From Eledone cirrhosa (Eukaryota): DNA of 64,000 nt. The position numbers were made by a program, and so were the translations under genes. Below the pieces are notes generated by a model. It was not told the DNA's origin and did not search any database. It worked only from the letters and a program-made list of their open reading frames with translations. Below, one piece after another: positions 2,031 to 52,922 of this stretch (within the stretch, counting starts at the first letter, position 1; each line of letters opens with the position of its first letter). The DNA lies in contig OZ024763.1 in the NCBI GenBank assembly GCA_964016885.1, positions 5,890,001-5,954,000 of the forward strand, in the 5' to 3' direction.

Positions 2031-2061
<31 letters not shown>

Positions 2062-2131
2062 CAACAACAACAACAACAACAATAGTAGTAGTAATGATAA
2101 TTATTATTTTTACCTTCCCAAGGCTGTCAAG

Positions 2132-2470
2132 ATGGATGGTACAAGAAGCAGCACAAAATCTCGTCGCAGGTCTTTGAGGACCCTGCAGCCACTGGACACT
2201 ACTCTGAATACAACACAGAGTGATGACTTACCCCAGAAGTATGGGTCAGTTTGGATTAACTGTGAATTGCCATCCCCAAAACTGAAGTATAAACGTCAGA
2301 GTATGTCCAGGCGGTCAATAAATCGGTCTTTCATGGAGAGCCACAACAACAACAACAACTGCAACGATATGGACTGTTCCGACAAGGAGAATGTTTATAT
2401 CAACTGTCATCTTGGTATCAAAACTGAAAGTGTAGCATCTCCGATGTCATCATCATCATCATCAACACCG

Positions 2471-2501
<31 letters not shown>

Positions 2502-22152: not shown

Positions 22153-22167
22153 TATATATATACATAT

Positions 22168-25100: not shown

Positions 25101-25213
25101 ATATTAAAACATTTTCAAACTTTCTTCTTAACGGTTTAGTGTTTATTCGAAGCCACAACAACAGGATTGGCAGTACTGCACATTTGTATTAAATTTGCCA
25201 TCCCTCATTCATA
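22168..25213. mobile_element. ~3-kb foldback element: long inverted arms with ~137-bp internal tandem repeats and a central palindrome
   Basis: ORFs 22389-22649(-)/24738-25004(+) and 22697-22879(-)/24508-24690(+) are mirror images. The 135-137-bp unit occurs 2x in the left arm and 5x in the right. The central palindrome spans 23347-23912. Confidence 0.85.
23505..23612 (+). ncRNA. tRNA-like Pol III unit/SINE head (A-box, B-box, T5 terminator); mirror copy 23644-23752 (-)
   Basis: A-box TGGCCGAGTGG, B-box GGTTCGATCCC, self-complementary cgttggccg/cggccaacg, TTTTT at 23608-23612. No canonical anticodon arm recognised. Confidence 0.5.
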
Positions 25214-25699
25214 TTATATATGATAGTTTGTGTGTGAGACACGTTGGCTGAGAACCTCTGACAGGAACTAATAGATTGATTCTTTTTAGCTTCCCGTCCT
25301 CACGTAAAATTTATAAATCGGTGGCTAGTTGAGAGATAGAGTCCTATCGGTTGCCAGTTAATCGCTTTACCATGTCGGTTGTCACAAACAGTTATGACTG
25401 GCGCGGGTCGGTGTTTGGATTATGTCGATCGATTGGTTATTGATTAGGCGATACCCGCTGATGAAGCAGCATAAGCCGATTGTGCATTGTTGCATAATAT
25501 ATGCAGACAGATGGTGCAGTGCACCTTAGTGCTGCAGAAACTCGAGTCCGGGAACCTTGTAGGCACCCGATTAACGTGTGTTGAGTTGAGGCAAATAACT
25601 AAGTGTATACTCTGGTAATGTATCTTACATTGACATTGAGTGCCCTGAGATACAACTGGTACTGGCATTGATAAATATGCTGGGTCCGTCAACCCTTAT

Positions 25700-27153
<1,454 letters not shown>

Positions 27154-27154
27154 A

Positions 27155-28717
27155 ACTTTGAAATGTTTTGACCAGTATTGGCCCAGGCCATGTCTAACTT
27201 AATAGCACCACCTGGCGAAGTCTTTCAATTCAGGATTTGGGCCCCATGGCCCATTCGAGAAGAGAATTACTGTTTGCGGAGACATATCCGGGTGTGGGTG
27301 GTTTGTCCGGGATTACTTGGAGGAATTTGTCCAAAGACTTCTTGAATTTTGTGTGGTCAGTTTCTGTTTTGACGTGTCCTGGTGTGATGTTGAAGAGAGC
27401 AGGGCCAATTGAGGTGAAATAATTGTGCCGTATTGTTGTTATGAGTTGCGATTTAGATTTTTGTATGGGACGGATAGCACAGGGCCCAAGCCTTGGGTGT
27501 ATCGTGAAGGCGATGCCAACATCATTTGGGCAGTGATGATGGAACATTTTCCACATCATGCAGATAATATAACGCTCTCGGCGACGTTGGAGTGAGTAAA
27601 ATTTCAGCTTTTCTAGTCGACCCCAGTAGTCAAGGTCTGACATGCCATCTATCTTTTTCGTGATTGCCCTTTGAGGAGCTTCAAGTTTCATGATACTTTG
27701 TTTCGTGTGGGGAGACCACAGTGGACAACAGTATTCAAGGTGTGGTCGGGCAAAAGTAGAGAAGAGAAGGATAATGGTGTGGGAATCTCTCGACTGGAAG
27801 GTTTTGAGGATCCAGGAACACATTCTGTGGACCATGTCAACTTTGCTGCTTATATGCGTGGCCCAGCTTATGTTGCTGTCCATGGTTACTCCCAAGTCTC
27901 TGATGTTGTTAGATGCCACGAGAGTTTCCCCGGAGGGAAGGGAGTACGGGAGTTTCAGAGCATCCTCTTTTCCAAAGTGGATCAGTTCGAATTTGTCTTC
28001 GTTCAGTAACATGTTGTTCTTTTCCACCCATTGGGTAATAGCCAGTAGGTCTGACTGAAGGCTTATCCGGTCATCCACGCCATTGATGACCTTTTGGAGC
28101 TTGGAATCATCAGCGAAAATTTTAATGTTGCTGTGTTTGATGATGTCAGTGATGTCATTAATATAGATGATGAAGAGAAGTGGGCCCAACACAGTGCCTT
28201 GTGGGACCCCACTACTGACTTTGGCTGGGTTGGATTTGACTCCTTCAACTACAACATGTTGGGTTCTGTTTGACAGGAAGCTCTTGATCCACTGCAGCAG
28301 CTTTCCAGTGACACCAATATTGGACAGCTTTCTCAGTAGAATGTTATGATCAACCCTGTCAAAGGCCTTGCTGAAATCAAGGTAGATAACATCAGTGTTG
28401 GAACCCTCTCCCAAGGCTCTCAAAATGTCATCAAAGTGATGCAGTAGCTGCGTCAGGCAATCCCTTCCGTTACGGAATCCATGCTGGTTGGAGTTCAGCA
28501 TATTGTTACTCTCAAGGAAGTGGGTCATTCGCGATCTCACCACTCTCTCAAATACCTTAATGATATGAGAGGTGAGTGAGATTGGACGGTAATTCACGGC
28601 AAGGGATTTGTTTCCTTTTTTGAAAACTGGGACAACAGACTGGGATAGAAGGTTTTCTGGCACATATCCAGCATCCAGTGAGTTCCGCCACAGATTGGCA
28701 AGAGGAGATGCAAGTTG
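27155..28717 (-). mobile_element. 5'-truncated CR1/L2-superclade LINE with an intact RT reading frame and 3' UTR
   Basis: NYRPISLTS...QHGFR...YLDFSKAFD...[10 protein letters not shown]...IFADD...[11 protein letters not shown], stop at 27230. The ORF's N-terminal YI run is microsatellite read-through. Confidence 0.93.
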
Positions 28718-29539
<822 letters not shown>

Positions 29540-29827
29540 ATCATCTTGGTTAAGAGAGTGGGACTGGCTTTGTGCAGTGCCTTTGCTCACTATAAAAGCT
29601 TCACGGCACAGGCATTGCTTTATATCTGGAGATCTCTGCACTTGTCGTCACATGGTACCATGGGCCCAGCACTATGTGTCAATAATTGTCACAAGTGTAG
29701 TGTTTGTACCAGAGTTTTCAAGTCGCTGGCTGGACTAAAAAGTCACACTCGTTCAGCGCATCGGTAGGGGTTCTCCTACATGGATATAAAGTAGTGGCCG
29801 TACTCGAAAACGAGTTGGCAGCCACCA
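29540..29827 (+). mobile_element. 3' segment of the 14740-15352 element family
   Basis: Near-identical to 15060-15350. Encodes the remnant [22 protein letters not shown]. Confidence 0.8.
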
Positions 29828-31278
<1,451 letters not shown>

Positions 31279-31280
<2 letters not shown>

Positions 31281-31640
31281 TGGCTGCCAACTCGTTTTCG
31301 AGTACGGCCACTACTTTATATCCATGTAGGAGAACCCCTACTGATGCGCTGAACGAGTGTGACTTTTTAGTCCAGCCAGCGACTTGAAAGCTCTGGTACA
31401 AACACTACACTTGTGACAATTATTGACACATAGTGCTGGGCCCATGGTACCATGTGACGACAAATGCAGAGAGATCTCCAGATATAAAGCAATGCCTGTG
31501 CCGTGAAGCTTTTATAGTGAGCAAAGGCACTGCACAAAGCCAGTCCCACTCTCTTAACCAAGATGATATTTACCAAAAAGAAGAACAAGTCAACATCATT
31601 GGATACCATCAGGGTTGCAGGTGTTATATCAGAGTTTTCC
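31279..31640 (-). mobile_element. Inverted copy of the same element (tail-to-tail with 29540-29827)
   Basis: Reverse complement of 14985-15350. Confidence 0.85.
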
Positions 31641-31672
31641 TATATATATATATATATATACATACATATATG

Positions 31673-31781
<109 letters not shown>

Positions 31782-31853
31782 GTATATATATATATATGTA
31801 AGTATATATGTATATGTATGTATATATATGTATATGTATGTATATGTATGTAT

Positions 31854-31884
<31 letters not shown>

Positions 31885-31930
31885 TGTATATATATGTATA
31901 TATATATATATGTATGTATATATATATATG

Positions 31931-31989
<59 letters not shown>

Positions 31990-32875: not shown

Positions 32876-33735
32876 TACACTTGAGAGACAAGGGTAACGG
32901 CTGGTTCTCCAACATAATGGCAAATAAGGTGAGATGCTCTACAAAAGGAGCACGGTAATACAGTATTTACGTATCGAGAGAGAGAAAAAAGGGAAGGATA
33001 GGTAATACATATAGTTATTTGCCAAGTAGCGTATGCCAAAGGTGCTCGATACTAGTGCCGGCAGTATTAATATTCGAAGTGTTAATATTTAGTGGGCTAG
33101 AGAGTTAGCAGAGCGTAAGCACGTGGGAAAGTAAGAAATCGGAGAATTAACCGTTAAAACATGTTTATTTAAAACAGCACCTACGTACGTTTCGCCCAGG
33201 TGGGCTTCTCAAGGGCATAAATAACCAAAAGTGTTCCTTACATTGCTCGGAAATAGTTTGGGGGGGTTACATTCACGTCAAGGTTCATTGCTTGCAAAAA
33301 TAGATTGTTTTGATTCTGGAGCTAGTCAAGGAAGGTAACTCTGGCCGGTGTTAGGGCAGTCTTTCCCGGACAAATTTTTATCCGCTACAAGATGAGGTTA
33401 CAACTTTACCATTGTCGATACGCACAGGGTCATGTAACCAACGCTTATTTTTAGACGTTTGTTTGCCACATATACATTATATATATATATATAAAGAAGA
33501 AAAGATGAAATCGAAAATGCAACTGGAGTCTTTTAAAAAATATATATATATATTTATTTGGTTCCTTTCTATATAACTATGTATATATATAGATATATAA
33601 TTTATATGTGTGTGTGTGTGTGTATTATGTAGGTCTCAATATGTAAACTAAACGACTAACACCGACTACAGAAAAATCAGTGTTAGTCGATTAGAAAAAT
33701 CATCAACTACTGCGACCTTAAAGTATCCCTACAAA

Positions 33736-36700
33736 ATCTCAATTAATAATCTGTACAATTGTGAAAATAATCAAGAAAGCAAGTTAGTAAAGTGAAAGGT
33801 ATGATTTTACATAGTAAGTTGAATGAGTTGTGGCCCTTAGATGAAAGACAACAAAACGAAGAGTCTAGTGAATGCTAGAAATGGCAGCCACTGAATATTA
33901 TAAATAATGATAGTTTTGGTAGTTAAACAACCCTCAAATATATGCCATAGTCAACAGTTTACCCTACAACAGCTTACAAAACTGATGAAAACCTTCTTCA
34001 GCGGTTAATAATACTAGAAATGGCGACTAAATATCCCTCAAATCACAGAGTAGTGACACTGGAAGTATTTAGAACAAATTCAATGATATATATAATATAC
34101 GAGGGTAGGCTGACCAACATTCACTCATGGAATGACCAAATGAGGTTTATTTTTCGACATGCACGATTTCACAGCACTAGCATCACTCCTTCATAGGGTG
34201 ACCAAGATACTCTCATGGAATGACCAAATGAGGTTTATTTTTCAACATGCAAGATTTCACACCCTAGCATCACTCCTTCATAGTGAGCCTATGAACTTTT
34301 AAGCCTATCTTCGATTATGTAAACAATGTATTTATTTAATAAACAAATAATTACTAAGAAATTCGAAATAATTTTTGCACCCATTTTTGCGATTAAGTAA
34401 AGACGGAGTTATCGTTCTTGAGATTTCGGCTCAGAGAAATTTATGGAACTGATGTCGCTAAATCGCCAAATCATTTACCTGCCCCGTTGCATCATGGGAA
34501 GGTAATGGCTGCCTTTTACTTTTCAAAAACCATGGCAGTCTTTTTAATATCTTTCTCGCCAAAATGTTTTAATTATTTACTTATATGAAACAAGGAACAA
34601 GATACTGCGAAAGAAACTAAAGATTCTGCCATCTTTTAAAAAATAAAAGGCAGCCATTACCCTCCCATGAGGCAACGGGGCAGGTAAATGATTTGGCGAT
34701 TTAGCGACATCAGTTCCTTAAATTTCTCCGAGCCGAAATCTCAAGAACGATAACTCTGTCTTTACTTAATCGCAAAAATGGGTGCAAAAATTATTTCGAA
34801 TTTCTTTAACTTTTGACACAATTGTTGCATGAATTAAAAACTGAATTTAAAATATTTTTTGTACATTTTTTAACTGTAGCCATAGTAATTATTTGTATAT
34901 TAAATAAATACATTGTTTACATAATCGAAGGTAGGCTTAAAAGTTCATAGGCTCACTATGAAGGAGTGATGCTAGGGTGTGAAATCTTGTATGTTGAAAA
35001 ATAAACCTCATTTGGTCATTCCATGAGAGTATCTTGGTCACACTATGAAGGAGTGATGCTAGAGCTGTGAAATCTTGCATGTTGAAAAATAAACCTCATT
35101 TGGTCATTCCATGAGCGTATCTTGGTCAGCCTCTGAAGGAGTGATGCTAGAGCTGTGAAATCTTGCATGTTGAAAAATAAACCTCATTTGGTCATTCCAT
35201 GAGCGTATCTTGGTCAGCCTCTGAAGGAGTGATGCTAGAGCTGTGAAATCTTGCATGTTGAAAAATAAACCTCATTTGGTCATTCCATGAGAGTATCTTG
35301 GTCAGCCTATGAAGGAGTGATGCTAGAGCTGTGGAATCTTGCATGTTGAAAAATAAACCTCATTTGGTCATTCCATGAGAGTATCTTGGTCACCCTATGA
35401 AGGAGTGATGCTAGAGCTGTGAAATCTTGCATGTTGAAAAATAAACCTCATTTGGTCATTCCATGAGAGTATCTTGGTCACCCTATGAAGGAGTGATGCT
35501 AGAGCTGTGGAATCTTGCATGTTGAAAAATAAACCTCATTTGGTCATTCCATGAGAGTATCCTGGTCCGCCTATTTTTCAACATGCAAGATTTCACAGCC
35601 CTAGCATCACTCCCTCATCCGCTGACCAAGATACTCTCATGGAATGACCAAATGAGGTTTATTTTTCAACATGCAAGATTTCACAGCTCTAGCATCTCTC
35701 CTTCATAGGCTGACCAAGATACTCTCATGGAATGACTAACATGAGGTTTATTTTTCAACATGCAAGATTTCACAGCTCTAGCATCACTCCTTGATAGGCT
35801 GACCAAGATACTCTCATGAAATGACCAAATGAGGTTTATTTTTCAACATGCAAGATTTCACAGCTCTAGCATCACTCCTTCATATGCTGACCAAGATACG
35901 CTCATGGAATGACCAAATGAGGTTTATTTTTCAACATGCAAGATTTCACAGCTCTAGCATCTCTCCTTCATAGGCTGACCAAGATACTCTCATGGAATGA
36001 CCAAATGAGGTTTATTTTTCAACATGCAAGATTGCACAGCCCTAGCATCACTCCTTCATAGGCTAACCAAGATACTCTCATGGAATGACCAAATGAGGTT
36101 TATTTTTCAACATGCAAGATTGCGCAGCTCTAGCATCACTCCTTCATAAGCTGACCAAGATACTCTCATGGAATGACCAAATGAGGTTTATTTTTCAACA
36201 TGCAAGATTGCACAGCCCTAGCATCACTCCTTCATAGGCTGGCCAAGATACTCTCATGGAATGACCAAATGAGGTTTATTTTTCAACATGCAAGATTGCA
36301 CAGCCCTAGCATCACTCCTTCATAGGCTGGCCAAGATACTCTCATGGAATGACCAAATGAGGTTTATTTTTCAACATGCAAGATTGCACAGCCCTAGCAT
36401 CACTCCTTCATAAGCTGACCAAGATACTCTCATGGAATGACCAAATGAGGTTTATTTTTCAACATGCAAGATTGCACAGTCCTAGCATCACTCCTTCATA
36501 AGCTGACCAAGATACTCTCATGGAATTACCAAATGTGGTTTATTTTTCCACATGCAAGATTGCACAGCCCTAGCATCACTCCTTCATAGTAAGCCTATGA
36601 ACTTTTAAGCCTACCTTCGTATATGTAAACAATGTATTTAATATACAAATAATTACTAAGAAATTCGAAATAATTTTTGCACCCATTTTTGCGATTAAGT

Positions 36701-39700
36701 AAAGACGGAGTTATCGTTCTTGAGATTTCGGCTCGGAGAAATTTAAGGAACTGATGTCGCTAAATCGCCAAATCATTTACCTGCCCCGTTGCATCATGGG
36801 AAGGTAATGGCTGCCTTTTATTTTTCAAAAACCATGGCAGTCTTTTTAATATCTTTCTCGCCAAAATATTTTTAATTATTTACTTATATGAAACAAGGAA
36901 CAAGATACTGCGAAAGAAACTAAAGAATCTGCCATCTTTTAAAAAATAAAAGGCAGCCATTACCTTCCCATGAGGCAACGGGGCAGGTAAATGATTTGGC
37001 GATTTAGCGACATCAGTTCCTTAAATTTCTCCGAGCCGAAATCTCAAGAACGATAACTCTGTCTTTACTTAATCGCAAAAATGGGTGCAAAAATTATTTC
37101 GAATTTCTTTAACTATTGACACAATTGTTGCATGAATTAAAAACTGAATTTAAAGTATTTTTTGTACATTTTTTAACTGTAGCAATAGTAATTATTTGTA
37201 TATTAAATAAATACATTGTTTACATAATCGAAGGTAGGCTTAAAAGTTCATAGGCTCACTATGAAGGAGTGATGCTAGGGTGTGAAATCTTGTATTTTGA
37301 AAAATAAACCTCATTTGGTCTTTCCATGAGAGTATCTTGGTCACACTATGAAGGAGTGATGCTAGAGCTGTGAAATCTTGCATGTTGAAAAATAAACCTC
37401 ATTTGGTCATTCCATGAGAGTATCTTGGTCACCCTCTGAAGGAGTGATGCTAGAGCTGTGAAATCTTGCATGTTGAAAAATAAACCTCATTTGGTCATTC
37501 CATGAGAGTATCTTGGTCAGCCTATGAAGGAGTGATGCTAGAGCTGTGGAATCTTGCATGTTGAAAAATAAACCTCATTTGGTCATTCCATGAGAGTATC
37601 TTGGTCACCCTATGAAGGAGTGATGCTAGAGCTGTGAAATCTTGCATGTTGAAAAATAAACCTCATTTGGTCATTCCATGAGAGTATCCTGGTCCGCCTA
37701 TTTTTCAACATGCAAGATTTCACAGCTCTAGCATCACTCCTTCATAGGGTGACCAAGATACTCTCATGGAATGACCAAATGAGGTTTATTTTTCAACATG
37801 CAAGATTTCACAGCTCTGGCATCACTCCTTCATAGGCTGACCAAGATACTCTCATGGAATGACCAAATAAGGTTTATTTTTCAACATGCACGATTTCATA
37901 GCTCTAGCATCTCTCCTTCATGGGCTGACCAAGATACTCTCATGGAATGACTAACATGAGGTTTATTTTTCAACATGCAAGATTTCACAGCTCTAGCATC
38001 ACTCCTTGATAGGCTGACCAAGATACTCTCATGGAATGACCAAATGAGGTTTATTTTTCAACATGCAAGATTTCACAGCTCTAGCATCACTCCTTCATAT
38101 GCTGACCAAGATACTCTCATGGAATGACCAAATGAGGTTTATTTTTCAACATGCAAGATTGCACAGCCCTAGCATCACTCCTTCATAGGCTGACCAAGAT
38201 ACTCTCATGGAATGACCAAATGAGGTTTATTTTTCAACATGCAAGATTTCACAGCTCTAGCATCACTCCTTCATAGGCTGACCAAGATACGCTCATGGAA
38301 TGACCAAATGAGGTTTATTTTTCAACATGCAAGATTTCACAGCTCTAGCATCTCTCCTTCATAGGCTGACCAAGATACTCTCATGGAATGACCAAATGAG
38401 GTTTATTTTTCAACATGCAAGATTGCACAGCCCTAGCATCACTCCTTCATAGGCTAACCAAGATACTCTCATGGAATGACCAAATGAGGTTTATTTTTCA
38501 ACATGCAAGATTGCACAGCTCTAGCATCACTCCTTCATAAGCTGACCAAGATACTCTCATGGAATGACCAAATGAGGTTTATTTTTCAACATGCAAGATT
38601 GCACAGCCCTAGCATCACTCCTTCATAGGCTGGCCAAGATACTCTCATGGAATGACCAAATGAGGTTATTTTTTCAACATGCAAGATTTCACAGTTCTAG
38701 TATCACTCCTTCATAGGCTGGCCAAGATACACTCATGGAATGACCAAATGAGGTTTATTTCTCAACATGCAAGATTGCACAGACCTAGCATCACTCCTTC
38801 ATAAGCTGACCAAGATACTCTCATGGAATGACCAAATGAGGTTTATTTTTCAACATGCAAGATTGCACAGCCCTAGCATCACTCCTTCATAGGCTGGCCA
38901 AGATACTCTCATGGAATGACCAAATGAGGTTTATTTTTCAACATGCAAGATTTCACAGCCCTAGCATCACTCCCTCATAGGCTGACCAAGATACTCTCAT
39001 GGAATGACCAAATGAGGTTTATTTTTCAACATGCAAGATTTCACAGCTCTGGCATCACTCCTTCATAGGCTGACCAAGATACTCTCATGGAATGACCAAA
39101 TAAGGTTTATTTTTCAACATGCACGATTTCATAGCTCTAGCATCTCTCCTTCATGGGCTGACCAAGATACTCTCATGGAATGACTAACATGAGGTTTATT
39201 TTTCAACATGCAAGATTTCACAGCTCTAGCATCACTCCTTGATAGGCTGACCAAGATACTCTCATGGAATGACCAAATGAGGTTTATTTTTCAACATGCA
39301 AGATTTCACAGCTCTAGCATCACTCCTTCATAGGCTGACCAAGATACTCTCATGGAATGACCAAATGAGGTTTATTTTTCAACATGCAAGATTGCACAGC
39401 CCTAGCATCACTCCTTCATAGGCTGACCAAGATACTCTCATGGAATGACCAAATGATGTTTATTTTTCAACATGCAAGATTTCACAGCTCTAGCATCTCT
39501 CCTTCATAGGCTGACCAAGATACTCTCATGGAATGACCAAATGAGGTTTATTTTTCAACATGCAAGATTGCACAGCCCTAGCATCACTCCTTCATACGCT
39601 AACCAAGATACTCTCATGGAATGACCAAATGAGGTTTATTTTTCAACATGCAAGATTGCACAGCTCTAGCATCACTCCTTCATAAGCTGACCAAGATACT

Positions 39701-42700
39701 CTCATGGAATGATCAAATGAGGTTTATTTTTCAACATGCAAGATTGCACAGCCCTAGCATCACTCCTTCATAAGCTGACCAAGATACTCTCATGGAATGA
39801 CCAAATGAGGTTTATTTTTCAACATGCAAGATTGCACAGCCCTAGCATCACTCCTTCATAGGCTGGCCAAGATACACTCATGGAATGAACAAATGAGGTT
39901 TATTTTTCAACATGCAAGATTGCACAGTCCTAGCATCACTCCTTCATAAGCTGACCAAGATACTCTCATGGAATGACCAAATGAGGTTTATTTTTCAACA
40001 TGCAAGATTGCACAGCTCTAGCGTCACTCCTTCATAGTAAGCCTATGAACTTTTAAGCCTACCTTCGTATATGTAAACAATGTATTTAATATACAAATAA
40101 TTACTAAGAAATTCGAAATAATTTTTGCACCCATTTTTGCGATTAAGTAAAGACGGAGTTATCGTTCTTGAGATTTCGGCTCGGAGAAATTTAAGGAACT
40201 GATGTCGCTAAATCGCCAAATCATTTACCTGCCCCATTGCATCATGGGAGGGTAATGGCTGCCTTTTATTTTTCAAAAACCATGGCAGTCTTTTTAATAT
40301 CTTTCTCGCCAAAATGTTTTAATTATTTACTTATATGAAACAAGGAACAAGATACTGCGAAAGAAACTAAAGAATCTGCCATCTTTTAAAAAATAAAAGG
40401 CAGCCATTACCCTCCCATGAGGCAACGGGGCAGGTAAATGATTTGGCGATTTAGCGACATCAGTTCCTTAAATTTCTCCGAGCCGAAATCTCAAGAACGA
40501 TAACTCCGTCTTTACTTAATCGCAAAAATGGGTGCAAAAATTATTTCGAATTTCTTAGTAATTATTTGTATATTAAATACTTACATTGTTTACATATACG
40601 AAGTTAGGCTTAAAAGTTCATAGGCTCACTATGAAGGAGTGACGCTAGAGCTGTGCAATCTTGCATGTTGAAAAATAAACCTCATTTGGTCATTCCATGA
40701 GAGTATCTTGGTCACACTATGAAGGAGTGATGCTAGAGCTGTGCAATCTTGCATGTTGAAAAATAAACCTCATTTGGTCATTCCATGAGAGTATCTTGGT
40801 CAGCCTATGAAGGAGTGATGCTAGAGCTGTGAAATCTTGCATGTTGAAAAATAAACCTCATTTGATCATTCCATGAGAGTATCTTGGTCAGCCTATGAAG
40901 GAGTGATGCTAGAGCTGTGAAATCTTGCATGTTGAAAAATAAACCTCATTTGGTCATTCCATGAGAGTATCTTGGTCAGCCTATGAAGGAGTGATGCTAG
41001 AGCTGTGAAATATGGCATGTTGAAAAATAAACCTCATTTGATCATTCCATGAGAGTATCTTGGTCAGCCTATGAAGGAGTGTAGCTAGAGCTGTGAAATC
41101 TTGCATCTTGAAAAATACCTCATTTGGTCATTCCATGAGAGCATCTTGGTCAGCCTATGAAGTGGTGATGCTAGAGCTGTGAAATCTTGCATGTTGAAAA
41201 ATAAACCTCATTTGATCATTCCATGAGAGTATGTTGGTCAGCTTATGAAGGAATGATGCTAGGGCTGTGCAATCTTGCATGTTGAAAAATAAACCTCATT
41301 TGGTCATTCCATGAGAGTATCTTGGTCAGCTTATGAAGGAATGATGCTAGAGCTGTGCAATATTGCATGTTGAAAAATAAACCTCATTTGGTCATTCCAT
41401 GAGAGTATCTTGGTCAGCCTATGAAGGAGTGATGCTAGAGCTGTGAAATCTTGCATGTTGCAAAATAAACCTCATTTGATCATTCCATGAGAGTATCTTG
41501 GTCAGCCTATGAAGGAGTGATGCTAGAGCTATGAAATCTTGCATGTTGAAAAATAAACCTCATTTGGTCATTCCATGAGAGTATCTTGGTCAGCCTACGA
41601 AGGAGTGATGCTAGAGCTGTGAAATCTTGCATGTTGAAAAATAAACCTCATTTGGTCATTCCATGAGAGTGTCTTGGTCAGCCTATGAAGGAGTGATGCT
41701 AGAGCTGTGAAATCTTGCATGTTGAAAAATAAACCTCATTTGATCATTCCATGAGAGTATCTTGGTCAGCCTATGAAGGAGTGATGCTAGAGCTGTGAAA
41801 TCTTGCATGTTAAAAAATAAACCTCATTTGGTCATTCCATGAGAGTATCTTGGTCAGTCTATGAAGGAGTGATGCTAGAGCTGTGAAATCTTGCATGTTG
41901 AAAAATAAACCTCATTTGGTCATTCCATGAGAGTATCCTGGTCAGCCTTTTTTTCAACATGCAAGATTTCACAGCTCTAGCATCACTCCTTCATAGGCTG
42001 ACCAAGATACGCTCATGGAATGACCAAATGAGGTTTATTTTTCAACATGCACGATTTCACAGCTCTAGCATCACTCCTTCATAGGCTGACCAAGATACTC
42101 TCATGGAATGACCAAATGAGGTTTATTTTTCAACATGCGCGATTTCATAGCTCTAGCATCTCTCCTTCATAGTCTGACCAAGATACTCTCATGGAATGAC
42201 CAAATGATGTTTATTTTTCAACATGCAAGATTTCACAGCTCTAGCATCACTCCTTCATAGGCTGACCAAGATACGCTCATGGAATGACCAAATGAGGTTT
42301 ATTTTTCAACATGCAAGATTTCACAGCTCTAGCATCTCTCCTTCATAGGCTGACCAAGATACTCTCATAAAATGACCAAATGAGCTTTATTTTTCAACAT
42401 GCAAGATTTCACAGCTCGAGCATCACTCGTTCATATGCTGACCAAGATACTCTCATGGAATGACCAAATGAGGTTTATTTTTCAACATGCAAGATTTCAC
42501 ACCCTAGCATCACTCCTTCATAGTGAGCCTATGAACTTTTAAGCCTACCTTCGATTATGTAAACAATGTAAGTATTTAATATACAAATAATTACTATTGC
42601 TACAGTTAAAAAATGTACAAAAAATACTTTAAATTCAGTTTTTAATTCATGCAACGATTGTGTCAATAGTTAAAGAAATTCGAAATAATTTTTGCACCCA

Positions 42701-45700
42701 TTTTTGCGATTAAGTAAAGACGGAGTTATCGTTCTTGAGATTTCGGCTCGGAGAAATTTAAGGAACTGATGTCGCTAAATCGCCAAATCATTTACCTGCC
42801 CCGTTGCCTCATGGGAGGGTAATGACTGCCTTTTATTTTTTAAACGATGGCAGATTCTTTAGTTTCTTTCGCAGTATCTTGTTCCTTGTTTCATATAAGT
42901 AAGTAATTAAAACATTCTGGCGAGAAAGATATTAAAAAGACTGCCATGGTTTTTAAAAAATAAAAGGCAGCCATTACCCTCCCATGATGCAACGGGGCAG
43001 GTAAATGATTTGGCGATTTAGCGACATCAGTTCCTTAAATTTCTCCGAGCCGAAATCTCAAGAACGATAACTCCGTCTTTACTTAATCGCAAAAATGGGT
43101 GCAAAAATTATTTCGAATTTCTTAGTAATTATTTGTATATTAAATACTTACATTGTTTACATATAAAGTAGGCTTAAAAGTTCATAGGCTCACTATGAAG
43201 GAGTGATGCTAGGGCTGTGCAATCTTGCATGTTGAAAAATAAACCTCATTTGGTCATTCCATGAGAGTATCTTGGTCACACTATGAAGGAGTGATGCTAG
43301 AGCTGTGCAATCTTGCATGTTGAAAAATAAACCTCATTTGGTCATTCCATGAGAGTATCTTGGTCAGCCTATGAAGGAGTGATGCTAGAGCTGTGAAATC
43401 TTGCATGTTGAAAAATAAACCTCATTTGATCATTCCATGAGAGTATCTTGGTCAGCCTATGAAGGAGTGATGCTAGAGCTGTGAAATCTTGCATGTTGAA
43501 AAATAAACCTCATTTGGTCATTCCATGAGAGTATCTTGGTCAGCCTATGAAGGAGTGATGCTAGAGCTGTGAAATCTTGCATCTTGAAAAATACCTCATT
43601 TGGTCATTCCATGAGAGCATCTTGGTCAGCCTATGAAGTGGTGATGCTAGAGCTGTGAAATCTTGCATGTTGAAAAATAAACCTCATTTGATCATTCCAT
43701 GAGAGTATGTTGGTCAGCTTATGAAGGAATGATGCTAGGGCTGTGCAATCTTGCATGTTGAAAAATAAACCTCATTTGGTCATTCCATGAGAGTATCTTG
43801 GTCAGCTTATGAAGGAATGATGCTAGAGCTGTGCAATATTGCATGTTGAAAAATAAACCTCATTTGGTCATTCCATGAGAGTATCTTGGTCAGCCTATGA
43901 AGGAGTGATGCTAGAGCTGTGAAATCTTGCATGTTGCAAAATAAACCTCATTTGATCATTCCATGAGAGTATCTTGGTCAGCCTATGAAGGAGTGATGCT
44001 AGAGCTATGAAATCTTGCATGTTGAAAAATAAACCTCATTTGGTCATTCCATGAGAGTATCTTGGTCAGCCTACGAAGGAGTGATGCTAGAGCTGTGAAA
44101 TCTTGCATGTTGAAAAATAAACCTCATTTGGTCATTCCATGAGAGTGTCTTGGTCAGCCTATGAAGGAGTGATGCTAGAGCTGTGAAATCTTGCATGTTG
44201 AAAAATAAACCTCATTTGATCATTCCATGAGAGTATCTTGGTCAGCCTATGAAGGAGTGATGCTAGAGCTGTGAAATCTTGCATGTTAAAAAATAAACCT
44301 CATTTGGTCATTCCATGAGAGTATCTTGGTCAGTCTATGAAGGAGTGATGCTAGAGCTGTGAAATCTTGCATGTTGAAAAATAAACCTCATTTGGTCATT
44401 CCATGAGAGTATCCTGGTCAGCCTTTTTTTCAACATGCAAGATTTCACAGCTCTAGCATCACTCCTTCATAGGCTGACCAAGATACGCTCATGGAATGAC
44501 CAAATGAGGTTTATTTTTCAACATGCACGATTTCACAGCTCTAGCATCACTCCTTCATAGGCTGACCAAGATACTCTCATGGAATGACCAAATGAGGTTT
44601 ATTTTTCAACATGCGCGATTTCATAGCTCTAGCATCTCTCCTTCATAGTCTGACCAAGATACTCTCATGGAATGACCAAATGATGTTTATTTTTCAACAT
44701 GCAAGATTTCACAGCTCTAGCATCACTCCTTCATAGGCTGACCAAGATACGCTCATGGAATGACCAAATGAGGTTTATTTTTCAACATGCAAGATTTCAC
44801 AGCTCTAGCATCTCTCCTTCATAGGCTGACCAAGATACTCTCATAAAATGACCAAATGAGCTTTATTTTTCAACATGCAAGATTTCACAGCTCGAGCATC
44901 ACTCGTTCATATGCTGACCAAGATACTCTCATGGAATGACCAAATGAGGTTTATTTTTCAACATGCAAGATTTCACACCCTAGCATCACTCCTTCATAGT
45001 GAGCCTATGAACTTTTAAGCCTACCTTCGATTATGTAAACAATGTAAGTATTTAATATACAAATAATTACTATTGCTACAGTTAAAAAATGTACAAAAAA
45101 TACTTTAAATTCAGTTTTTAATTCATGCAACGATTGTGTCAATAGTTAAAGAAATTCGAAATAATTTTTGCACCCATTTTTGCGATTAAGTAAAGACGGA
45201 GTTATCGTTCTTGAGATTTCGGCTCGGAGAAATTTAAGGAACTGATGTCGCTAAATCGCCAAATCATTTACCTGCCCCGTTGCCTCATGGGAGGGTAATG
45301 ACTGCCTTTTATTTTTTAAACGATGGCAGATTCTTTAGTTTCTTTCGCAGTATCTTGTTCCTTGTTTCATATAAGTAAGTAATTAAAACATTCTGGCGAG
45401 AAAGATATTAAAAAGACTGCCATGGTTTTTAAAAAATAAAAGGCAGCCATTACCCTCCCATGATGCAACGGGGCAGGTAAATGATTTGGCGATTTAGCGA
45501 CATCAGTTCCTTAAATTTCTCCGAGCCGAAATCTCAAGAACGATAACTCCGTCTTTACTTAATCGCAAAAATGGGTGCAAAAATTATTTCGAATTTCTTA
45601 GTAATTATTTGTATATTAAATACTTACATTGTTTACATATAAAGTAGGCTTAAAAGTTCATAGGCTCACTATGAAGGAGTGATGCTAGGGCTGTGCAATC

Positions 45701-47275
45701 TTGCATGTTGAAAAATAAACCTCATTTGGTCATTCCATGAGAGTATCTTGGTCACACTATGAAGGAGTGATGCTAGAGCTGTGCAATCTTGCATGTTGAA
45801 AAATAAACCTCATTTGGTCATTCCATGAGAGTATCTTGGTCAGCCTATGAAGGAGTGATGCTAGAGCTGTGAAATCTTGCATGTTGAAAAATAAACCTCA
45901 TTTGATCATTCCATGAGAGTATCTTGGTCAGCCTATGAAGGAGTGATGCTAGAGCTGTGAAATCTTGCATGTTGAAAAATAAACCTCATTTGGTCATTCC
46001 ATGAGAGTATCTTGGTCAGCCTATGAAGGAGTGATGCTAGAGCTGTGAAATCTTGCATCTTGAAAAATACCTCATTTGGTCATTCCATGAGAGCATCTTG
46101 GTCAGCCTATGAAGTGGTGATGCTAGAGCTGTGAAATCTTGCATGTTGAAAAATAAACCTCATTTGGTCATTCCATGAGAGTATGTTGGTCAGCTTATGA
46201 AGGAATGATGCTAGTGCTGTGCAATCTTGCATGTTGAAAAATAAACCTCATTTGGTCATTCCATGAGAGTATCTTGGTCAGCTTATGAAGGAATGATGCT
46301 AGGGCTGTGCAATCTTGCATGTTGAAAAATAAACCTCATTTGGTCATTCCATGAGACTATCTTGGTCAGCCTATGAAGGAGTGATGCTAGAGCTGTGAAA
46401 TCTTGCATGTTGAAAAATAAACCTCATTTGATCATTCCATGAGAGTATCTTGGTCAGCCTATGAAGGAGTGATGCTAGAGCTATGAAATCTTGCATGTTG
46501 AAAAATAAACCTCATTTGGTCATTCCATGAGAGTATCTTGGTCAGCCTATGAAGGAGTGATGCTAGAGCTGTGAAATCTTGCATGTTGAAAAATAAACCT
46601 CATTTGATCATTCCATGAGAGTATCTTGGTCAGCCTATGAAGGAGTGATGCTAGAGCTGTGAAATCTTGCATGTTAAAAAATAAACCTCATTTGGTCATT
46701 CCATGAGAGTATCTTGGTCAGCCTATGAAGGGGTGATGCTAGAGCTGTGAAATCTTGCATGTTGAAAAATAAACCTCATTTGATCATTCCATGAGAGTAT
46801 CTTGGTCAGCCTATGAAGGAGTGATGCTAGAGCTGTGAAATCTTGCATGTTGAAAAATAAACCTCATTTGGTCATTCCATGAGAGTATGTTGGTCAGCCT
46901 ACCCTCGTATATTATATATATCATTGAATTTGTTCTAAATACTTCCAGTGTCACTACTCTGTGATTTGATGGATATTTAGTCGCCATTTCTAGTATTTTT
47001 AACCGCTGAAGAGGGTTTTCGTCAGTTTTGTAAGGTATTGTAGGGTAAACTGTTGAATATGGCATATATTTGAGGGTTGTTTAACCCCTAAAACAATCAT
47101 TATTTATAATATTTCAGTGGCTGCCATTTCTAGCATTCAGTAGACTCTTCGTTTTGTTGTCTTTCATCTAAGGGAAACAACTCATTCAACTTACTATTTT
47201 GTTAAATCATACCTTTCACTTTACTAAGTTGCTTTCTTGATAACTTTCACAATTGTACAGATTATTAATTGAGAT
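33736..47275. repeat. Giant foldback: ~365-bp inverted outer arms enclosing alternating inverted arrays of an 88-bp satellite and five hairpin spacers
   Basis: 33736-34099 is the diverged reverse complement of 46908-47275. The unit ctatgaaggagtgatgctagagctgtgaaatcttgcatgttgaaaaataaacctcatttggtcattccatgagagtatcttggtcagc (88 nt) occurs on both strands between 34100 and 46907. Confidence 0.93.
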
Positions 47276-49330
47276 GTCCCCAGATGTATGTGACAGCACG
47301 GAGGACCTACTCAGCAGAATCGGCGGGAGTAACCGATCTAGGGACCTAACAAACTGCATAATAGGTAGTATGGATGTTGTGTCCCTGTATCCATCTATTG
47401 ACGTGGATTTTGCTGTGGAGAAATGCGTAGAAATGATCAGCGAGAGCAAGGTTGAGTTCCGTGGGATTGATACCAGTGAGCTGGGACTCCTACTTAAACT
47501 TACCTATAGTAATAATTATCTAGACACATATGACCTTAGCAACCTGTGTCCTACAAGACCAGCAAGAGGCAGACCACATACCATTACCTCAATGGCCAAG
47601 AAAACCCACACAGATAGATGGAATGGGTGGACCAGAGCCATACAGACCCCCGAAAACCTCAATGAACTAAAGAAAATGATTGCACATGCGGTGGGGGCCA
47701 GCATAAAATTAACCCTTAAGGAACATATGTTCAAATTTAATGGAAAAACGTATGCCCAAGAGGAGGGAGCAGCCATTGGTGTTAGCATTGCAGGCGACAT
47801 AGCTAACTTATTCATGGTATGGTGGGACAGTAGACTTAAACTTAAACTTAAAGAACAATTAGAAGACCCCTTAACCCTGATAATGTACTCCTGCTACGTT
47901 GATGATATAAACATCGTAGATAAAACACCACCACTAGAGAACAGTCCAGTCAGGAATTTGAGAAAAACACAATGGAAAGCATCCAGCAAATAGCTAACTC
48001 CATCCACCAGAGTATTAGAGTTACTATAGACTACCCAAGCAAACACCCTAACCATCGATTACCTGTACTAGACACAGAGCTCTGGTTAGATACCATTAAT
48101 AACAAAAAACAAATCCTCCATTCCCATTATGCCAAACCCATGGCTTCCAAATATCTGATCCACCGAAACTCAGCTGATTCGGACCATACCAAAATCAACA
48201 TACTGATTGCAGATTTGGTACGGGTGATGAGAAACATGTCCAGCATGTGCAACCCCGAAGAACTAGAGAGACACATACAACACTTCATCCACCGTATGCA
48301 GTTCTCTGGTTACAATCAGAGAGATAAGATCAGAGTATATAGAGGAGCCAGAACCAAATGGGAAAAAATGGTAAATAATGACATAAATGGGACCTGCCCC
48401 TTGTATAGGAGCAAATTTTGGAATAGAATAGAAAGAACTAGGAATAAGGCTAATAGAATAAACTCATGGTATGATAGCAATAAATACCAGAGTGTAATGT
48501 TCATCGATACAACCCCAAGAGGTGAATTAGCTTACAAATTTAGAAGGGCCCTAGATAAACATAAACTCAATATTAAGATAGTAGAAAGACCAGGTACCTC
48601 CATAAAAACACTTATTAGCAAGACATACCCTTTTCAAAGACCCCCCCCCTGTATAGATAAGAAATGTATAACCTGTAAATTAAGCCCCCATATTAACTGT
48701 AAAACTAGAAATGTAGTATATAGCATAAGATGTACTGAAGGACAATGTAGAGATAAAAATATAGCGTACATAGGTGAGACAGCTCGTAGTGTAGGGGAAC
48801 GGATAAATGAACACTGGCGAGACCTTCAAGATAGTAAAGAATCATCTGTACTCTACCAACATGCTAAAATAGAACATAAGGGTAAATTAGAGAACATAGA
48901 AATAAAAATAGAATCTACACAGGAAAGACGCAATGTTTAGACAAATCACAGAGGCAATAAACATAAAAGAATTACAACCAAAATTAAATAGAAAACATGA
49001 GTGGAACAGCAACATCACAACTTACAATTAAGGACAAAATGAAAACACACACACACATAGAACAAACAACCAACCAGTAACATGTAAATAAACAAATAAA
49101 TAAACGAATATAAATACACACAGACACCCGGATGTGGCGCATGTGCAGACTGAGCACACAACACACACACAGAAACAAGATGGCGTAGAACAGAACAAAG
49201 GTACAAAAACAAAGAAAAGAATCCCCAGTCACTGAAGACGTCACAGAATGTGTGACGAAAGAACTTTGACAATATATAAACAACCATCTGGTTGTGGAAC
49301 CAACCAACCAACCGGAAATTTATAAATTCC
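47276..49330 (+). mobile_element. 5'-truncated Penelope-like retroelement (RT + GIY-YIG endonuclease), frameshifted
   Basis: SMDVVSLYPSID...QEEGAAIG...YVDD (RT), thumb LPVLD...HY.KP, Cys-rich linker CIDKKCITC...C, then NVVYSIRC...YIGETARSVGERINEH (GIY-YIG). Hammerhead-like motif in the 3' region. Confidence 0.93.
49228..49270 (+). ncRNA. Minimal type-I hammerhead ribozyme-like motif in the PLE 3' region
   Basis: gtca-CTGAAGA-c-gtcaca gaatg tgtgac-GAAA-gaac-TT-tgac: stem I gtca/tgac, stem II gtcaca/tgtgac, minimal stem III. Confidence 0.7.
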
Positions 49331-49491
49331 TAAATTCATAAATTTATTATAATAGATTGAAGTGAAAGCAACTGGTGCGTGTGTTTCTTATTGGCAACAT
49401 GACCCTCCCAAAATATAACAATATCGGTTTCAACACACGTTTTCAGATAAAGAATCTCGCTAAACAAATTCAGAAACGAAATATATATATT

Positions 49492-49721
<230 letters not shown>

Positions 49722-49725
49722 TATA

Positions 49726-49945
49726 TGAAGGCGTGTGGCGGAGTGGTTAGAGAATTGGATTCACGATCGTAAGGTTGTGAGTTCGATTCCTGGACCAGGC
49801 GATGCGTTATGTCCTTGAGCAAGACACTTTATTTCACGTTGCTCCTTCTACCTGGAGTTGCGACCGATAGATAGTATTAGCAATTGGAAAGACCAACGGA
49901 AACATTGTTCCCTCGGTCCGATTTGACGAAAGTCGATCGTCCATC
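49726..49945 (+). mobile_element. tRNA-derived CORE-like SINE with alternative tail
   Basis: A-box tggcggagtgg, B-box gagttcgattcc, tccttgagcaagacactt. Confidence 0.75.
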
Positions 49946-51463
<1,518 letters not shown>

Positions 51464-51979: not shown

Positions 51980-52182
51980 GAGGGCTGGCTGACAATTTCA
52001 TAGGCTGACGATAAAGGAGTGATGCTAGAGCTGTGAAATCTTGCATGCCATTAATTTCAAATTTCAAATCTTATTAATAACTGCATTGTTTCTTTCCAGG
52101 GACTATGTTGAAAATATAAACCTCATTTGGTCATTCCATGAGAGTATCTTGGTCAGCCTATGAACTTTTCAGCCGACCCTCG
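51980..52182 (+). mobile_element. Tc1/mariner-type MITE, copy A (~200 bp)
   Basis: TIRs gagggctggctgacaatttcataggctgac / gtcagcctatgaacttttcagccgaccctcg, then TA. Confidence 0.8.
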
Positions 52183-52193
52183 TATGTATGTAA

Positions 52194-52224
<31 letters not shown>

Positions 52225-52228
<4 letters not shown>

Positions 52229-52423
52229 GGTCGGTTGAAAAGTTCATAGGCTGACTAAAAAGGTATGATGCTAGGACTGCGAAATCTTGCATACCATTAA
52301 TTTCAACTCTTCTTATTAATATCTGCATTGTTTCTTTCCAGGGACTAAGTTGGAAAATAAACCTCATTTGATCATTCCATGAGAGTATCTTGGTCAGCCT
52401 GTGAACTTTTCAGCCGACCCTCA
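52225..52423 (+). mobile_element. Tc1/mariner-type MITE, copy B (199 bp), TA-flanked
   Basis: ~30-bp TIRs tgagggtcggttgaaaagttcataggctgac / gtcagcctgtgaacttttcagccgaccctca, with TA on both sides. Confidence 0.85.
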
Positions 52424-52922
52424 TATACATGGATGCATGCATGGCATGCATGCCATAGAACCCTGGGGCAGGGGAAGTCGCAAGGGTGCTGATTGACATA
52501 GGCGGCCGGCCGCCCGGCATTTCTAGGGCTCAACATACATGGATAAATCCACAACGATAGAGAGAAGTCCAACAAGAGTTTTTTTGTTTTTGTTTTTCTT
52601 CGCCACCCCTCTCATCCCCAAAATTGTGCAACTATGAGGAAATTCCTCAAATTTCAACTGAGAAGTTTTACAATGTTTTTTTTTTTTTTATTTTGAGAAA
52701 AAAGTCTCCGAAGATGATGATGATGAAGAAGTAGTTCTGATAATTCCCCCAGATTTTGAATAAGAAAAAAAAGGTGGGTGGGGTTGTGGAGAAATCTTTC
52801 AATGTTTGTTACTGCCAGAAAAAATCTCCGAAGAAGATGACTGAAGTTCCGATAATTCCTCCTCCAGAGTTTTGAATTGGAAAGAAAAAGGGTGGAATGG
52901 GGTAGGAGGAAGAAGTTTCTTT

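Follow-up and report, generated by a model that had tools for sequence, protein, structure and literature searches.

Long inverted arms made of an outer domain, a variable tandem array and an inner domain, placed around a non-coding middle, are known from the Tetris/TIR-220 elements of Drosophila virilis, whose arrays expand into satellite DNA (excerpts of PMC4079207). In Xenopus, the interior of a mariner-type MITE has given rise to the satellite miDNA4 thanks to short microhomologies (PMC12628747, in excerpt). Inverted junctions of yeast use repeats of 2-14 bp, preferentially located 40-80 bp apart (excerpts of PMC10766183), and palindromes can seed larger palindromes by fold-back priming (PMC7999016, in excerpt). 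Finally, the rolling-hairpin concatemers of AAV2 alternate head to head and tail to tail, with hairpins at the turns (PMC11575299, in excerpt). A locus of Eledone cirrhosa is like each of these systems in part. It occupies positions 33736-47275 of the window, that is, of the whole 64,000-nucleotide stretch that was analysed (assembly GCA_964016885.1, contig OZ024763.1, positions 5,890,001-5,954,000, forward strand). This locus, a non-coding, hairpin-centred, alternating satellite of mariner-MITE origin, belongs to a set of at least five such arrays, located on few small chromosomes.

Organisation of the 13.5-kb locus

BLAST of window-derived parts and TRF delineated ten alternating arrays of an 88-bp unit (R0-R4 and F1-F5), five hairpin spacers (S1-S5) and four junctions (J1-J4), with the following features.

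33570-33733 (+): outer end of the left arm, a TA/TG microsatellite tract followed by about 110 bp, common to other copies
33734-34105 (+): left outer arm (OD), dispersed on scaffolds C23, C24 and C26
34106-34283 (-): array R0, 2 units of 88 bp, beginning at a deleted mariner-MITE terminal repeat
34284-34955 (+): spacer S1, made of MITE terminal repeat and inner 40 bp, core, and mirrored inner part; hairpin core 34353-34806 (loop +), one-sided 78-bp segment 34808-34885
34956-35572 (+): array F1, 7 units
35521-35582 (+): junction J1, 11-bp inverted arms around 40 unpaired nt, with 3-4-bp microhomology
35572-36589 (-): array R1, 11.5 units
36590-37258 (+): spacer S2, loop +, 78-bp segment on the right
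37259-37699 (+): array F2, 5 units, direct copy of F1
37648-37709 (+): junction J2, letters identical to J1
37699-40037 (-): array R2, 26.5 units, with internal duplication of an R1-like run
40038-40628 (+): spacer S3, loop +, no 78-bp segment
40629-41948 (+): array F3, 15 units
41897-41958 (+): junction J3, two substitutions relative to J1 and J2
41950-42523 (-): array R3, 6.5 units
42524-43192 (-): spacer S4, loop -, 78-bp segment on the left
43193-44424 (+): array F4, 14 units
44373-44434 (+): junction J4, identical to J3
44426-44999 (-): array R4, 6.5 units, identical to R3
45000-45668 (-): spacer S5, identical to S4
45669-46901 (+): array F5, 14 units, ending in a deleted MITE terminal repeat
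46902-47275 (-): right outer arm (OD), 18 mismatches relative to the left arm, cut at 47275
41084-46166 (+): perfect direct duplication with a period of 2,476 bp
47276-48940 (+): reverse-transcriptase-like element, adjoining and truncating the right arm, outside the array
51980-52426 (+): two free copies of the mariner MITE of about 200 bp, source of the 88-bp unit

Array orientation alternates strictly (-,+,-,+,-,+,-,+,-,+), as a preliminary description of the window had stated, and the successive arrays contain 2, 7, 12, 5, 27, 15, 7, 14, 7 and 14 units, 110 in total with the four half units at the junctions. The approximate array limits given in that description had to be moved, since they also cover the terminal repeat of the MITE and some 40 bp of the spacer. 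The rest of the architecture that it had proposed is present. All five reverse-to-forward switches pass through the same hairpin spacer and all four forward-to-reverse switches use the same junction. The inverted outer arms of about 365 bp, 33736-34105 and 46902-47275, align with 352 matches, 18 mismatches and 4 gap columns. The block of about 2476 bp is directly duplicated, 41084-43690 being identical in the assembly to 43560-46166 at 2,607 of 2,607 positions. In homologous copies, the left arm is longer by at least 110 bp on its left side, and the first 28 bp of this outer stretch match the interior of another abundant repeat. The element cutting the right arm gives a weak RVT_1 match (E 3e-4, below the Pfam cut-off). 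No open reading frame of at least 120 amino acids occurs between 32897 and 47244, and no Rfam match at gathering score was obtained in 22000-48000.

Unit, hairpin and junction within and beyond the window

When the unit and both array ends are aligned to the free MITE, the 88-mer is shown to derive from it: the unit corresponds to the MITE interior with a 56-bp deletion and repeats at a 7-bp sequence common to both MITE ends. These ends are also those of mariner elements of about 1.27 kb, with both ends near full at four of the seven loci examined. Open frames from such loci match HTH_48 (E 3.6e-5, at the cut-off) and Transposase_1 (E 4.9e-16). A short mariner-like fragment among the open reading frames of the fetched regions belongs to the family of the MITE; by itself it had no Pfam or PDB match, and longer copies did match. 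The end of the source MITE has 51 exact matches on 16 contigs, mostly large ones.

The hairpin core of the spacer (S), about 454 bp long, consists of two arms of about 171 bp and a 115-bp middle. Folded as DNA, spacer 3 reaches -286 kcal/mol (z -41.6 relative to 100 shuffles). The older repeat of which S is a folded-back copy also exists unfolded, and S presumably originated from it by fold-back. The term flip/flop, used in the preliminary description, is appropriate for the spacer because the loop orientation from S1 to S5 is + + + - -. The 78-bp segment is present in spacers 1, 2, 4 and 5, always on a single side, but not in S3, the left side of which is like S2 and the right side like S4; S3 is probably a recombinant. 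S4 and S5 are closer to a spacer located 1 Mb away (5 mismatches) than to S1 and S2 (12 and 9), and the spacer tree does not join S1-S3 and S4-S5 as sister groups. Similarly, the right outer arm differs from the left arm by 18 mismatches and from other loci by only 9-11, and sister status of the two arms, which share no private state, is not supported. The window locus may therefore have arisen by fusion of two paralogous copies instead of descending from a single palindrome.

The exact junction (J) has four matches in 3.0 Gb, all in the window, with four on the forward and none on the reverse strand, an agreement that, for the window alone, is not significant (p 0.125, own arithmetic). A 62-nt contig identical to 35538-35599, across J1, was found with 0 differences in runs X3, X4 and X5 (depths 9.3, 8 and 5.6), with 34 and 25 letters beside the microhomology, one side thus being below the 31-letter rule; the RAD run X6, which is uninformative, listed no such piece. 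The runs that contain J come from one sample, which may be the assembly's own source. J, with its 3-4-bp inverted repeat and 40-nt spacing, matches the geometry of the inverted junctions of yeast (excerpts of PMC10766183), and the template-switch (fold-back) geometry evoked earlier fits it. Arrays of the same orientation are copies of each other and the arrays flanking the hairpin are not mirror copies. Indeed, rare variant types are found in common between F1 and F2 (7), R1 and R2 (8), F3 and F4 (15), R3 and R4 (10), and F4 and F5 (9). Across J1-J4 there are none at any junction, across S1-S5 there are 2, 0, 1, 1 and 2, and none of the five window spacers has units in mirror register. Copying is hierarchical, with an F1-F2 group and an F3-F4-F5 group. 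Because the arrays flanking J are not mirror copies, only its geometry would argue for an origin by a U-turn.

Genome-wide, the hairpin has 100 matches carrying locus-specific variants, 95 of them on the four scaffolds C22, C23, C24 and C26, which represent 3.9% of the assembly. Among 95 hairpins in fetched DNA, 69 have arrays on both sides, invariably reverse on the left and forward on the right (69/69), 14 have an array on one side and 12 have none. The arm-array-hairpin architecture is found at many loci. In agreement with the preliminary description, the locus is neither an ordinary satellite nor the outcome of a single local inversion. Alternating arrays with their own junctions arose independently at at least four loci besides that of the window. 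They include a 59-kb array on C23 (22,127,264-22,186,380; 11 S, 11 J), two arrays of 3 S and 2 J each (C24:10,761,725-10,768,324 and C23:4,672,142-4,683,080), one of 4 S and 3 J of two kinds, in which the spacer flips (C24:4,378,379-4,401,263), and one of 8 S and 7 joints including part of the outer arm (C26:19,919,928-19,959,977). In the 59-kb array, all 11 spacers and all 11 junctions have one orientation (p about 0.001 each, own arithmetic), and at C24:10.76 Mb and C23:4.67 Mb S and J are uniformly oriented as well. Within each of the six loci scored, all copies of J keep the same direction, discrimination being weak at two of them with a nearly palindromic turn. Moreover, S7 equals S9 and S8 equals S10 in the 59-kb array (0 mismatches, and 8 between the pairs), which indicates a two-unit duplication spanning about 6.5 kb.

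Palindromes reaching about 43-55 kb are also centred on the hairpin, and their outer arms are of several kinds. The arms that accompany this hairpin and its arrays on C23 are wholly different and 14-20 kb long, and no common outer end of these giant palindromes was seen within the 25-45 kb read per side at five loci. A TA-microsatellite turn is observed at other loci. The outer arm of the window has at least 43 matches; it is met at the same TA/TG tract by at least three different upstream contexts, flanks common to several copies extend beyond it over about 1.1-1.4 kb, and it stands at both ends of two loci (L016 and L017). The second arm stops at arm positions 3, 105, 112, 118, 161 or 320, the arm ends differ from locus to locus, and no fixed ends common to the copies were found at the loci examined. 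Target-site duplications, for which the preliminary description had suggested looking, were not seen by eye at the printed ends, many of which lie in TA tracts that would hide one. An own terminal inverted repeat was considered and rejected: the outer-end 22-mer has 987 matches, but only 28 bp match in 19 of 19 C1 loci inspected. As its context in these 19 loci is the interior of another repeat, the 22-mer gives no indication of a transposon family. Among open reading frames of at least 150 amino acids in ten fetched regions, none for a transposase or Rep protein could be linked to the arms. Helitrons and Helentrons are characterized by a terminal hairpin, sub-terminal repeats, central arrays, a RepHel partner and genome-wide spread. 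Head-to-tail tandems exist here, but spread is confined to few scaffolds, and no RepHel frame was recognised among the open reading frames of the fetched regions.

Possible modes of origin and spread

The locus is probably best accounted for by a MITE-derived satellite set back to back around an older hairpin, followed by a second fold-back junction and then by unequal exchange duplicating the whole unit head to tail. The deleted MITE interior is repeated at the 7 bp common to the MITE ends, and S, which presumably arose by fold-back of the older repeat, centres palindromes. A single J would have formed here by a U-turn at the 3-4-bp inverted repeat, at the end of a long array; alternatively, it may derive from the deletion of a TA-microsatellite turn like those of other loci. 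The inverted pair could then be duplicated head to tail because the second fold-back junction closes its outer end, giving a direct-repeat unit [reverse array - hairpin - forward array - junction]. As the shared variants suggest, unequal exchange between same-orientation arrays and spacer arms would have led to five spacers and four junctions, and one inversion or arm exchange would have flipped the spacer in part of the array, with S3 as a recombinant. Most tentatively, spread within and between the few small chromosomes might have occurred by ectopic recombination or repair at TA-rich tracts, and not by cut-and-paste. Uniform orientation of S and J would equally be expected from rolling-circle copying, since copying of a circle in this way gives equally uniform turns (PMC11575299, in excerpt).

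An unlikely alternative is precisely a closed-loop intermediate, in which S and J (or the TA turn) would be the ends of a hairpin-capped piece, extruded and then replicated by the host to an inverted-dimer circle as in ODIRA. Such a circle would be copied by rolling circle and reinserted by homology, with unequal exchange intervening only later, and would explain how amplification began as well as how the family spread from locus to locus. The uniform turns of the three loci named above, the ODIRA-junction form of J, a short repeat with a 40-nt spacer (excerpts of PMC10766183), the lack of fixed ends and the local clustering are in its favour. However, copies within arrays are hierarchical and not star-like, as illustrated by the two-unit duplication and by the two groups of forward arrays, and spacers of both orientations occur in the window as well as at C24:4.38 Mb. 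It is tempting, though still rather unlikely, to imagine S as a heritable non-coding "palindrome seed" that, with a second turn, defines a hairpin-capped piece that is set free, replicated by enzymes of the host and reinserted nearby. Were this so, the family would be a protein-free parasite on few small chromosomes, generating palindromes of 3-55 kb and alternating satellites of up to 59 kb. Another unlikely alternative is a foldback transposon of Tetris/Galileo type, non-autonomous, whose long inverted arms would carry the satellite and which would insert in TA microsatellites and hop locally, the alternating array being a local derivative. The layout of the locus matches that of Tetris, from outer arm through tandem array and inner domain to middle (PMC4079207, in excerpt), and the recurrence of the outer arm, its junction to several contexts at one TA/TG tract and its presence at both ends of L016 and L017 agree with such a transposon. 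Nevertheless, no target-site duplication was found at the ends examined, although a TA tract would hide one, and the second arm stops at many points. The terminal 22-mer belongs to another repeat in the 19 C1 loci inspected, flanks are shared beyond the arm, the C23 arms are wholly different, and no transposase gene with these ends occurs in the DNA fetched.

An artefact of assembly or amplification, through chimeric reads or false duplication of the whole locus or only of the 2,476-bp block, is very improbable. The perfect overlap would be expected of it, and the runs containing J represent a single sample. Yet the J1 contig has no difference in three runs, many substitutions separate the arms, the spacers and the arrays, and the hairpin occurs at 100 places with variants of their own; the preliminary description was right that the outer-arm substitutions make a simple WGA chimera unlikely. 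As for the self-amplifying rolling-hairpin element evoked in the same description, after the manner of parvoviruses, it is hardly credible. Arrays joined head to head and tail to tail through turns of two kinds, and a very stably folding spacer present here in both orientations, recall such a mechanism. However, hairpin orientation is random in AAV concatemers (excerpts of PMC11575299), whereas the 59-kb array has a single orientation of either turn and J never flips. Mirror copying is not observed, either across J or in the register of units at the spacers, unit lengths all differ and the element has no open reading frame of at least 120 amino acids. Orientation and variant patterns have already largely refuted this reading.

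Comparison with described systems

No description of this family, or of alternating hairpin-spaced arrays, was found in the literature searched, which includes few subscription papers; the family may already be catalogued in a repeat database such as Repbase or Dfam. Second junctions arose independently at five or more loci of a single genome, in one case in an array of 59 kb. As each locus has a junction of its own and datable variants, they constitute a natural replicate series on the origin of strand-switching satellites. The family is thus suited to asking by which process, circles or unequal exchange, amplification first proceeds, and how large palindromes are maintained in the germ line. 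It also shows that the "inverted chimera" patterns of long-read assemblies are, in some cases, likely to be genuine.

Tetris has target-site duplications of 8-10 bp and defined ends (PMC4079207, in excerpt). Neither was found here, where TA tracts would nonetheless hide duplications. Also unlike Tetris, the locus has a hairpin for its middle and takes its repeat from a mariner MITE, and multiplication of the inverted pair has produced an alternating higher-order array. The miDNA4 array has one orientation and rides on its MITE (excerpts of PMC12628747), whereas the present array is set in opposite orientations on either side of a foreign hairpin and is restricted to few chromosomes, the free MITE being genome-wide. 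With respect to AAV2, the element has no replication gene, no random flip/flop of turns, no mirror-identical arms and no unit length. J is like the ODIRA junction in being inverted and in having a very short repeat, the copies of which are 40 nt apart (PMC10766183, in excerpt). ODIRA and fold-back priming are, however, single somatic or laboratory events on unique DNA (excerpts of PMC10766183 and PMC7999016), whereas the locus of E. cirrhosa belongs to a family that is inherited and aged, counts about 100 hairpin copies and has undergone secondary expansion.

Architecture and authenticity of the window element

The window corresponds to C24:5,890,001-5,954,000 of a 3.0-Gb assembly (1,796 contigs), with a repeat landscape suggestive of a cephalopod. 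The element was delineated with TRF and by searching the window with its own parts (BLAST). This confirmed the plan proposed in the preliminary description, namely inverted arms, alternating 88-bp arrays, hairpin spacers, a repeated junction and a duplication of about 2476 bp.

33734-34105, + strand: left outer arm (BLAST, TRF)
46902-47275, - strand: right outer arm (BLAST, TRF)
Ten arrays of the 88-bp unit, in the order - + - + - + - + - +: 2, 7, 12, 5, 27, 15, 7, 14, 7 and 14 units

Four of the array units are half units, located at junctions. Reverse arrays (R0-R4) switch to forward arrays (F1-F5) through five spacers (S1-S5), the core of each consisting of two inverted arms of about 171 bp and a 115-bp middle; the folding energy of S3 is -286 kcal/mol (z -41.6). 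From S1 to S5 the middle is oriented + + + - -. S1 and S2 carry a 78-bp segment on the right-hand side of the core and S4 and S5 on its left-hand side, whereas S3 lacks it. At the four forward-to-reverse junctions (J1-J4), 40 unpaired bases are found between 11-bp inverted arms, with two substitutions between J1/J2 and J3/J4. This junction pattern has four matches genome-wide, all within the window and on the + strand. In the assembly, positions 41084-43690 and 43560-46166 are identical (2,607/2,607), which corresponds to a duplication with a 2,476-bp period; 18 mismatches separate the two outer arms. The element has no Rfam match.

A 62-nt contig identical to 35538-35599, across J1, is present in each of the runs X3, X4 and X5 (depth 9.3, 8 and 5.6), which represent one sample with an unrecorded library, possibly the assembly's own source. 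It comes from the comparison of four of the eight listed runs with a 136-base stretch spanning J1, and has 25 letters on one side, below the 31 required; no information came from the RAD run X6. This contig, the number of substitutions that set the parts apart and their recurrence at other loci make a chimeric origin unlikely, in agreement with the earlier argument against a WGA chimera. The read comparison covered J1; the order across 13.5 kb and the perfect 2,476-bp block are as given by the assembly.

Other features were observed in the window:

1925-8086, + strand: open frame of 2,053 aa that contains coding repeats of 39, 42 and 123/138 bp and, near its end, a sub-threshold Tantalus-like match (E 9.8e-5)
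22160-25221: another palindrome, unrelated but built on the same plan, with a central hairpin, a one-sided extra segment and inverted arms that bear 135/137-bp tandem arrays (2.3 and 5.3 copies)
25703-31989 and 49481-51460: very long tracts rich in TA (up to 2.5 kb)
27230-29647, - strand: LINE reverse-transcriptase frame among these tracts
57882-60146: tandem array with 32 copies of a 70-bp unit (96% matches)

The extra segment of the second palindrome includes 50 bp of the spacer arm. Close copies of this palindrome cluster on contig C24, where some of them form tandem units of 12.8-15.7 kb.

The hairpin family across the genome

The fold-point pattern of the spacer (at most 2 mismatches) has at least 100 matches (C26 40, C23 29, C24 20, C22 6, unplaced C1515 4, C15 1), a lower bound since the window's own S2 escapes the pattern. 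C22, C23, C24 and C26 together make up 3.9% of the assembly. Among 95 hairpins scored in retrieved DNA, 69 have arrays on both sides, 14 on one side, and 12 have none, with other flanks; all 69 two-sided hairpins are reverse-left/forward-right. Copies on C24 and C26 usually consist of an outer arm, a short array, the spacer and a long array, in that order, and often stand head to tail. The arm-array-hairpin architecture, whose recurrence had been left to check, is found at many loci. Since unfolded relatives of the spacer arm (L016, L017) run on into other sequence, the spacer would be a folded-back derivative of a repeat that also occurs unfolded.

Several relatives were also observed. On C26:110,205-135,042 (orientation - - - + + + +) and on C1515, a hairpin variant without the 88-bp satellite is repeated with (GGT)n-rich flanks. 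Older relatives of the unfolded arm form back-to-back pairs 2-4 kb apart (L214-L217 at C12:49.77 Mb, C13, C7, C20, C21); C12 also shows tandem repetition of a 2.86-kb unit whose arms are inverted. Palindromic mosaics may occur generally in this genome. Clusters of C2H2 zinc-finger motifs adjoin some hairpin copies (L171, L172 and L147, C26:5.71-5.73 Mb and 3.73 Mb), with 15, 9 and 13 matches, as against 0-2 at other loci (1.47 Mb scanned).

Alternating arrays occur elsewhere:

C23:22,127,264-22,186,380 (L161, L137-L141, L162): 59 kb, 11 spacers, 11 junctions, TA-tract junction
C23:4,672,142-4,683,080: 3 spacers, 2 junctions
C24:4,378,379-4,401,263: 4 spacers (- + + +), two junction kinds
C24:10,761,725-10,768,324: 3 spacers, 2 copies of a different abrupt junction
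C26:19.92-19.96 Mb: 8 spacers, joined via part of the outer arm

In the 59-kb array, all spacers have one orientation, as do all junctions; the switch from reverse to forward at its right end lacks the spacer and lies at a near-perfect short hairpin. Elsewhere, long arrays finish with a unit that meets a CA/TA tract at the exact base where the junction turns in the window. The window junction would therefore result either from deletion of a CA/TA-tract turn or from a U-turn at a 3-4-bp repeat.

Contig C23 also carries giant palindromes with the spacer core at their center:

C23:9,372,366-9,415,571: 43 kb
C23:11,783,146-11,816,660: about 33 kb
Further palindromes: 29 kb, about 31 kb and about 55 kb
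Centers near 3,956,540; 7,376,100; 9,394,210; 11,800,245; 14,407,500

Their arms, which are 82-100% identical and contain LINE and mariner debris, are common to several loci and stop at differing points, with no visible duplication at these ends. One arm segment has 24 close copies, on C22/C23 only. Two palindromes show 100% identity between their inner unique arms over 1.4-1.8 kb, beside arrays that are not mirror images, which suggests arm-to-arm conversion.

Origin of the unit and growth of the alternation

The 88-bp unit is related to a mariner-type MITE:

51980-52426: two free MITEs of about 200 bp each

Aligned with the MITE interior, the unit shows a 56-bp deletion; it is repeated at a 7-bp word found inside both MITE ends. 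Arrays end with a full MITE end on the spacer side and a deleted one on the outer-arm side. MITE halves flank elements of about 1.27 kb, near-full on both sides in 4/7 loci examined. Open frames from such loci match HTH_48 (E 3.6e-5, at the cut-off) and Transposase_1 (E 4.9e-16); of four frames, one has a sub-threshold DDE_3 match and one has no match. Probed with an exact 33-mer, the MITE end is found 51 times, across 16 contigs. By contrast, an exact 54-mer taken from the tandem unit is found 566 times, the first 100 listed starting at C22.

Considering how the arrays came to alternate, several possibilities may be envisaged. Rolling-hairpin self-amplification, put forward in the preliminary description, is not borne out. 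In AAV, hairpin orientation is random in rolling-hairpin concatemers and uniform in rolling-circle products (PMC11575299). The junction never flips inside any locus scored, a test that is weak at two loci with a nearly palindromic turn and, for the 4/4 of the window alone, not significant. Moreover, none of the units flanking the window spacers lies in mirror register, and the element contains no open frame of at least 120 aa; the family fails the orientation, mirror and gene tests for rolling-hairpin replicons. Uniform spacer and junction orientation would also be expected from a circular template copied by rolling circle, a less probable origin, and the junction is shaped like the ODIRA junctions described in PMC10766183. 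A foldback transposon resembling Tetris (PMC4079207) is likewise a less probable alternative; a target duplication could be hidden where ends lie in TA tracts. However, the second arm ends at many points, flanks are common to copies more than 1 kb past the arm, and the apparent terminal word belongs to another repeat; the family fails the fixed-end test of this class.

Sharing of rare unit variants (present in at most 6/110 units, half units trimmed to 47 columns) points to stepwise direct duplication. Same-orientation arrays have 7 (F1-F2), 8 (R1-R2), 15 (F3-F4), 10 (R3-R4) and 9 (F4-F5) in common, whereas none is common to the two sides of any of J1-J4; 0-2 are common to both sides of window spacers. 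Together with the lack of mirror register and with the 59-kb C23 array, where S7=S9 and S8=S10 reveal that a two-unit block of about 6.5 kb was duplicated, this argues that alternation would grow by stepwise direct duplication of an inverted unit. The best explanation, which we consider reasonably probable, is a MITE-derived satellite around an older hairpin, in which a second junction lets the inverted unit duplicate head to tail. Against this reading, the locus may combine two paralogous copies. Indeed, the outer arms have no private states in common, the right arm showing 9-11 mismatches to other loci and 18 to the left one. S4/S5 have 5 mismatches to the spacer at C24:4.908 Mb, as against 12 and 9 to S1/S2, and the spacer tree leaves the two window groups unjoined, with a bootstrap that had not fully settled.

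Relation to known systems

No description of such a hairpin-spaced alternating satellite family was found in the literature, the search covering published papers. The family works like a Tetris-type satellite nursery, but without fixed ends (PMC4079207); the origin of its monomer is of the same type as that of miDNA4 (PMC12628747), and its junction resembles fold-back junctions (PMC7999016). Inverted tandems are described as unable to expand by unequal exchange (PMC5932611); in the Eledone cirrhosa genome, a second junction would repeatedly bypass this bar.
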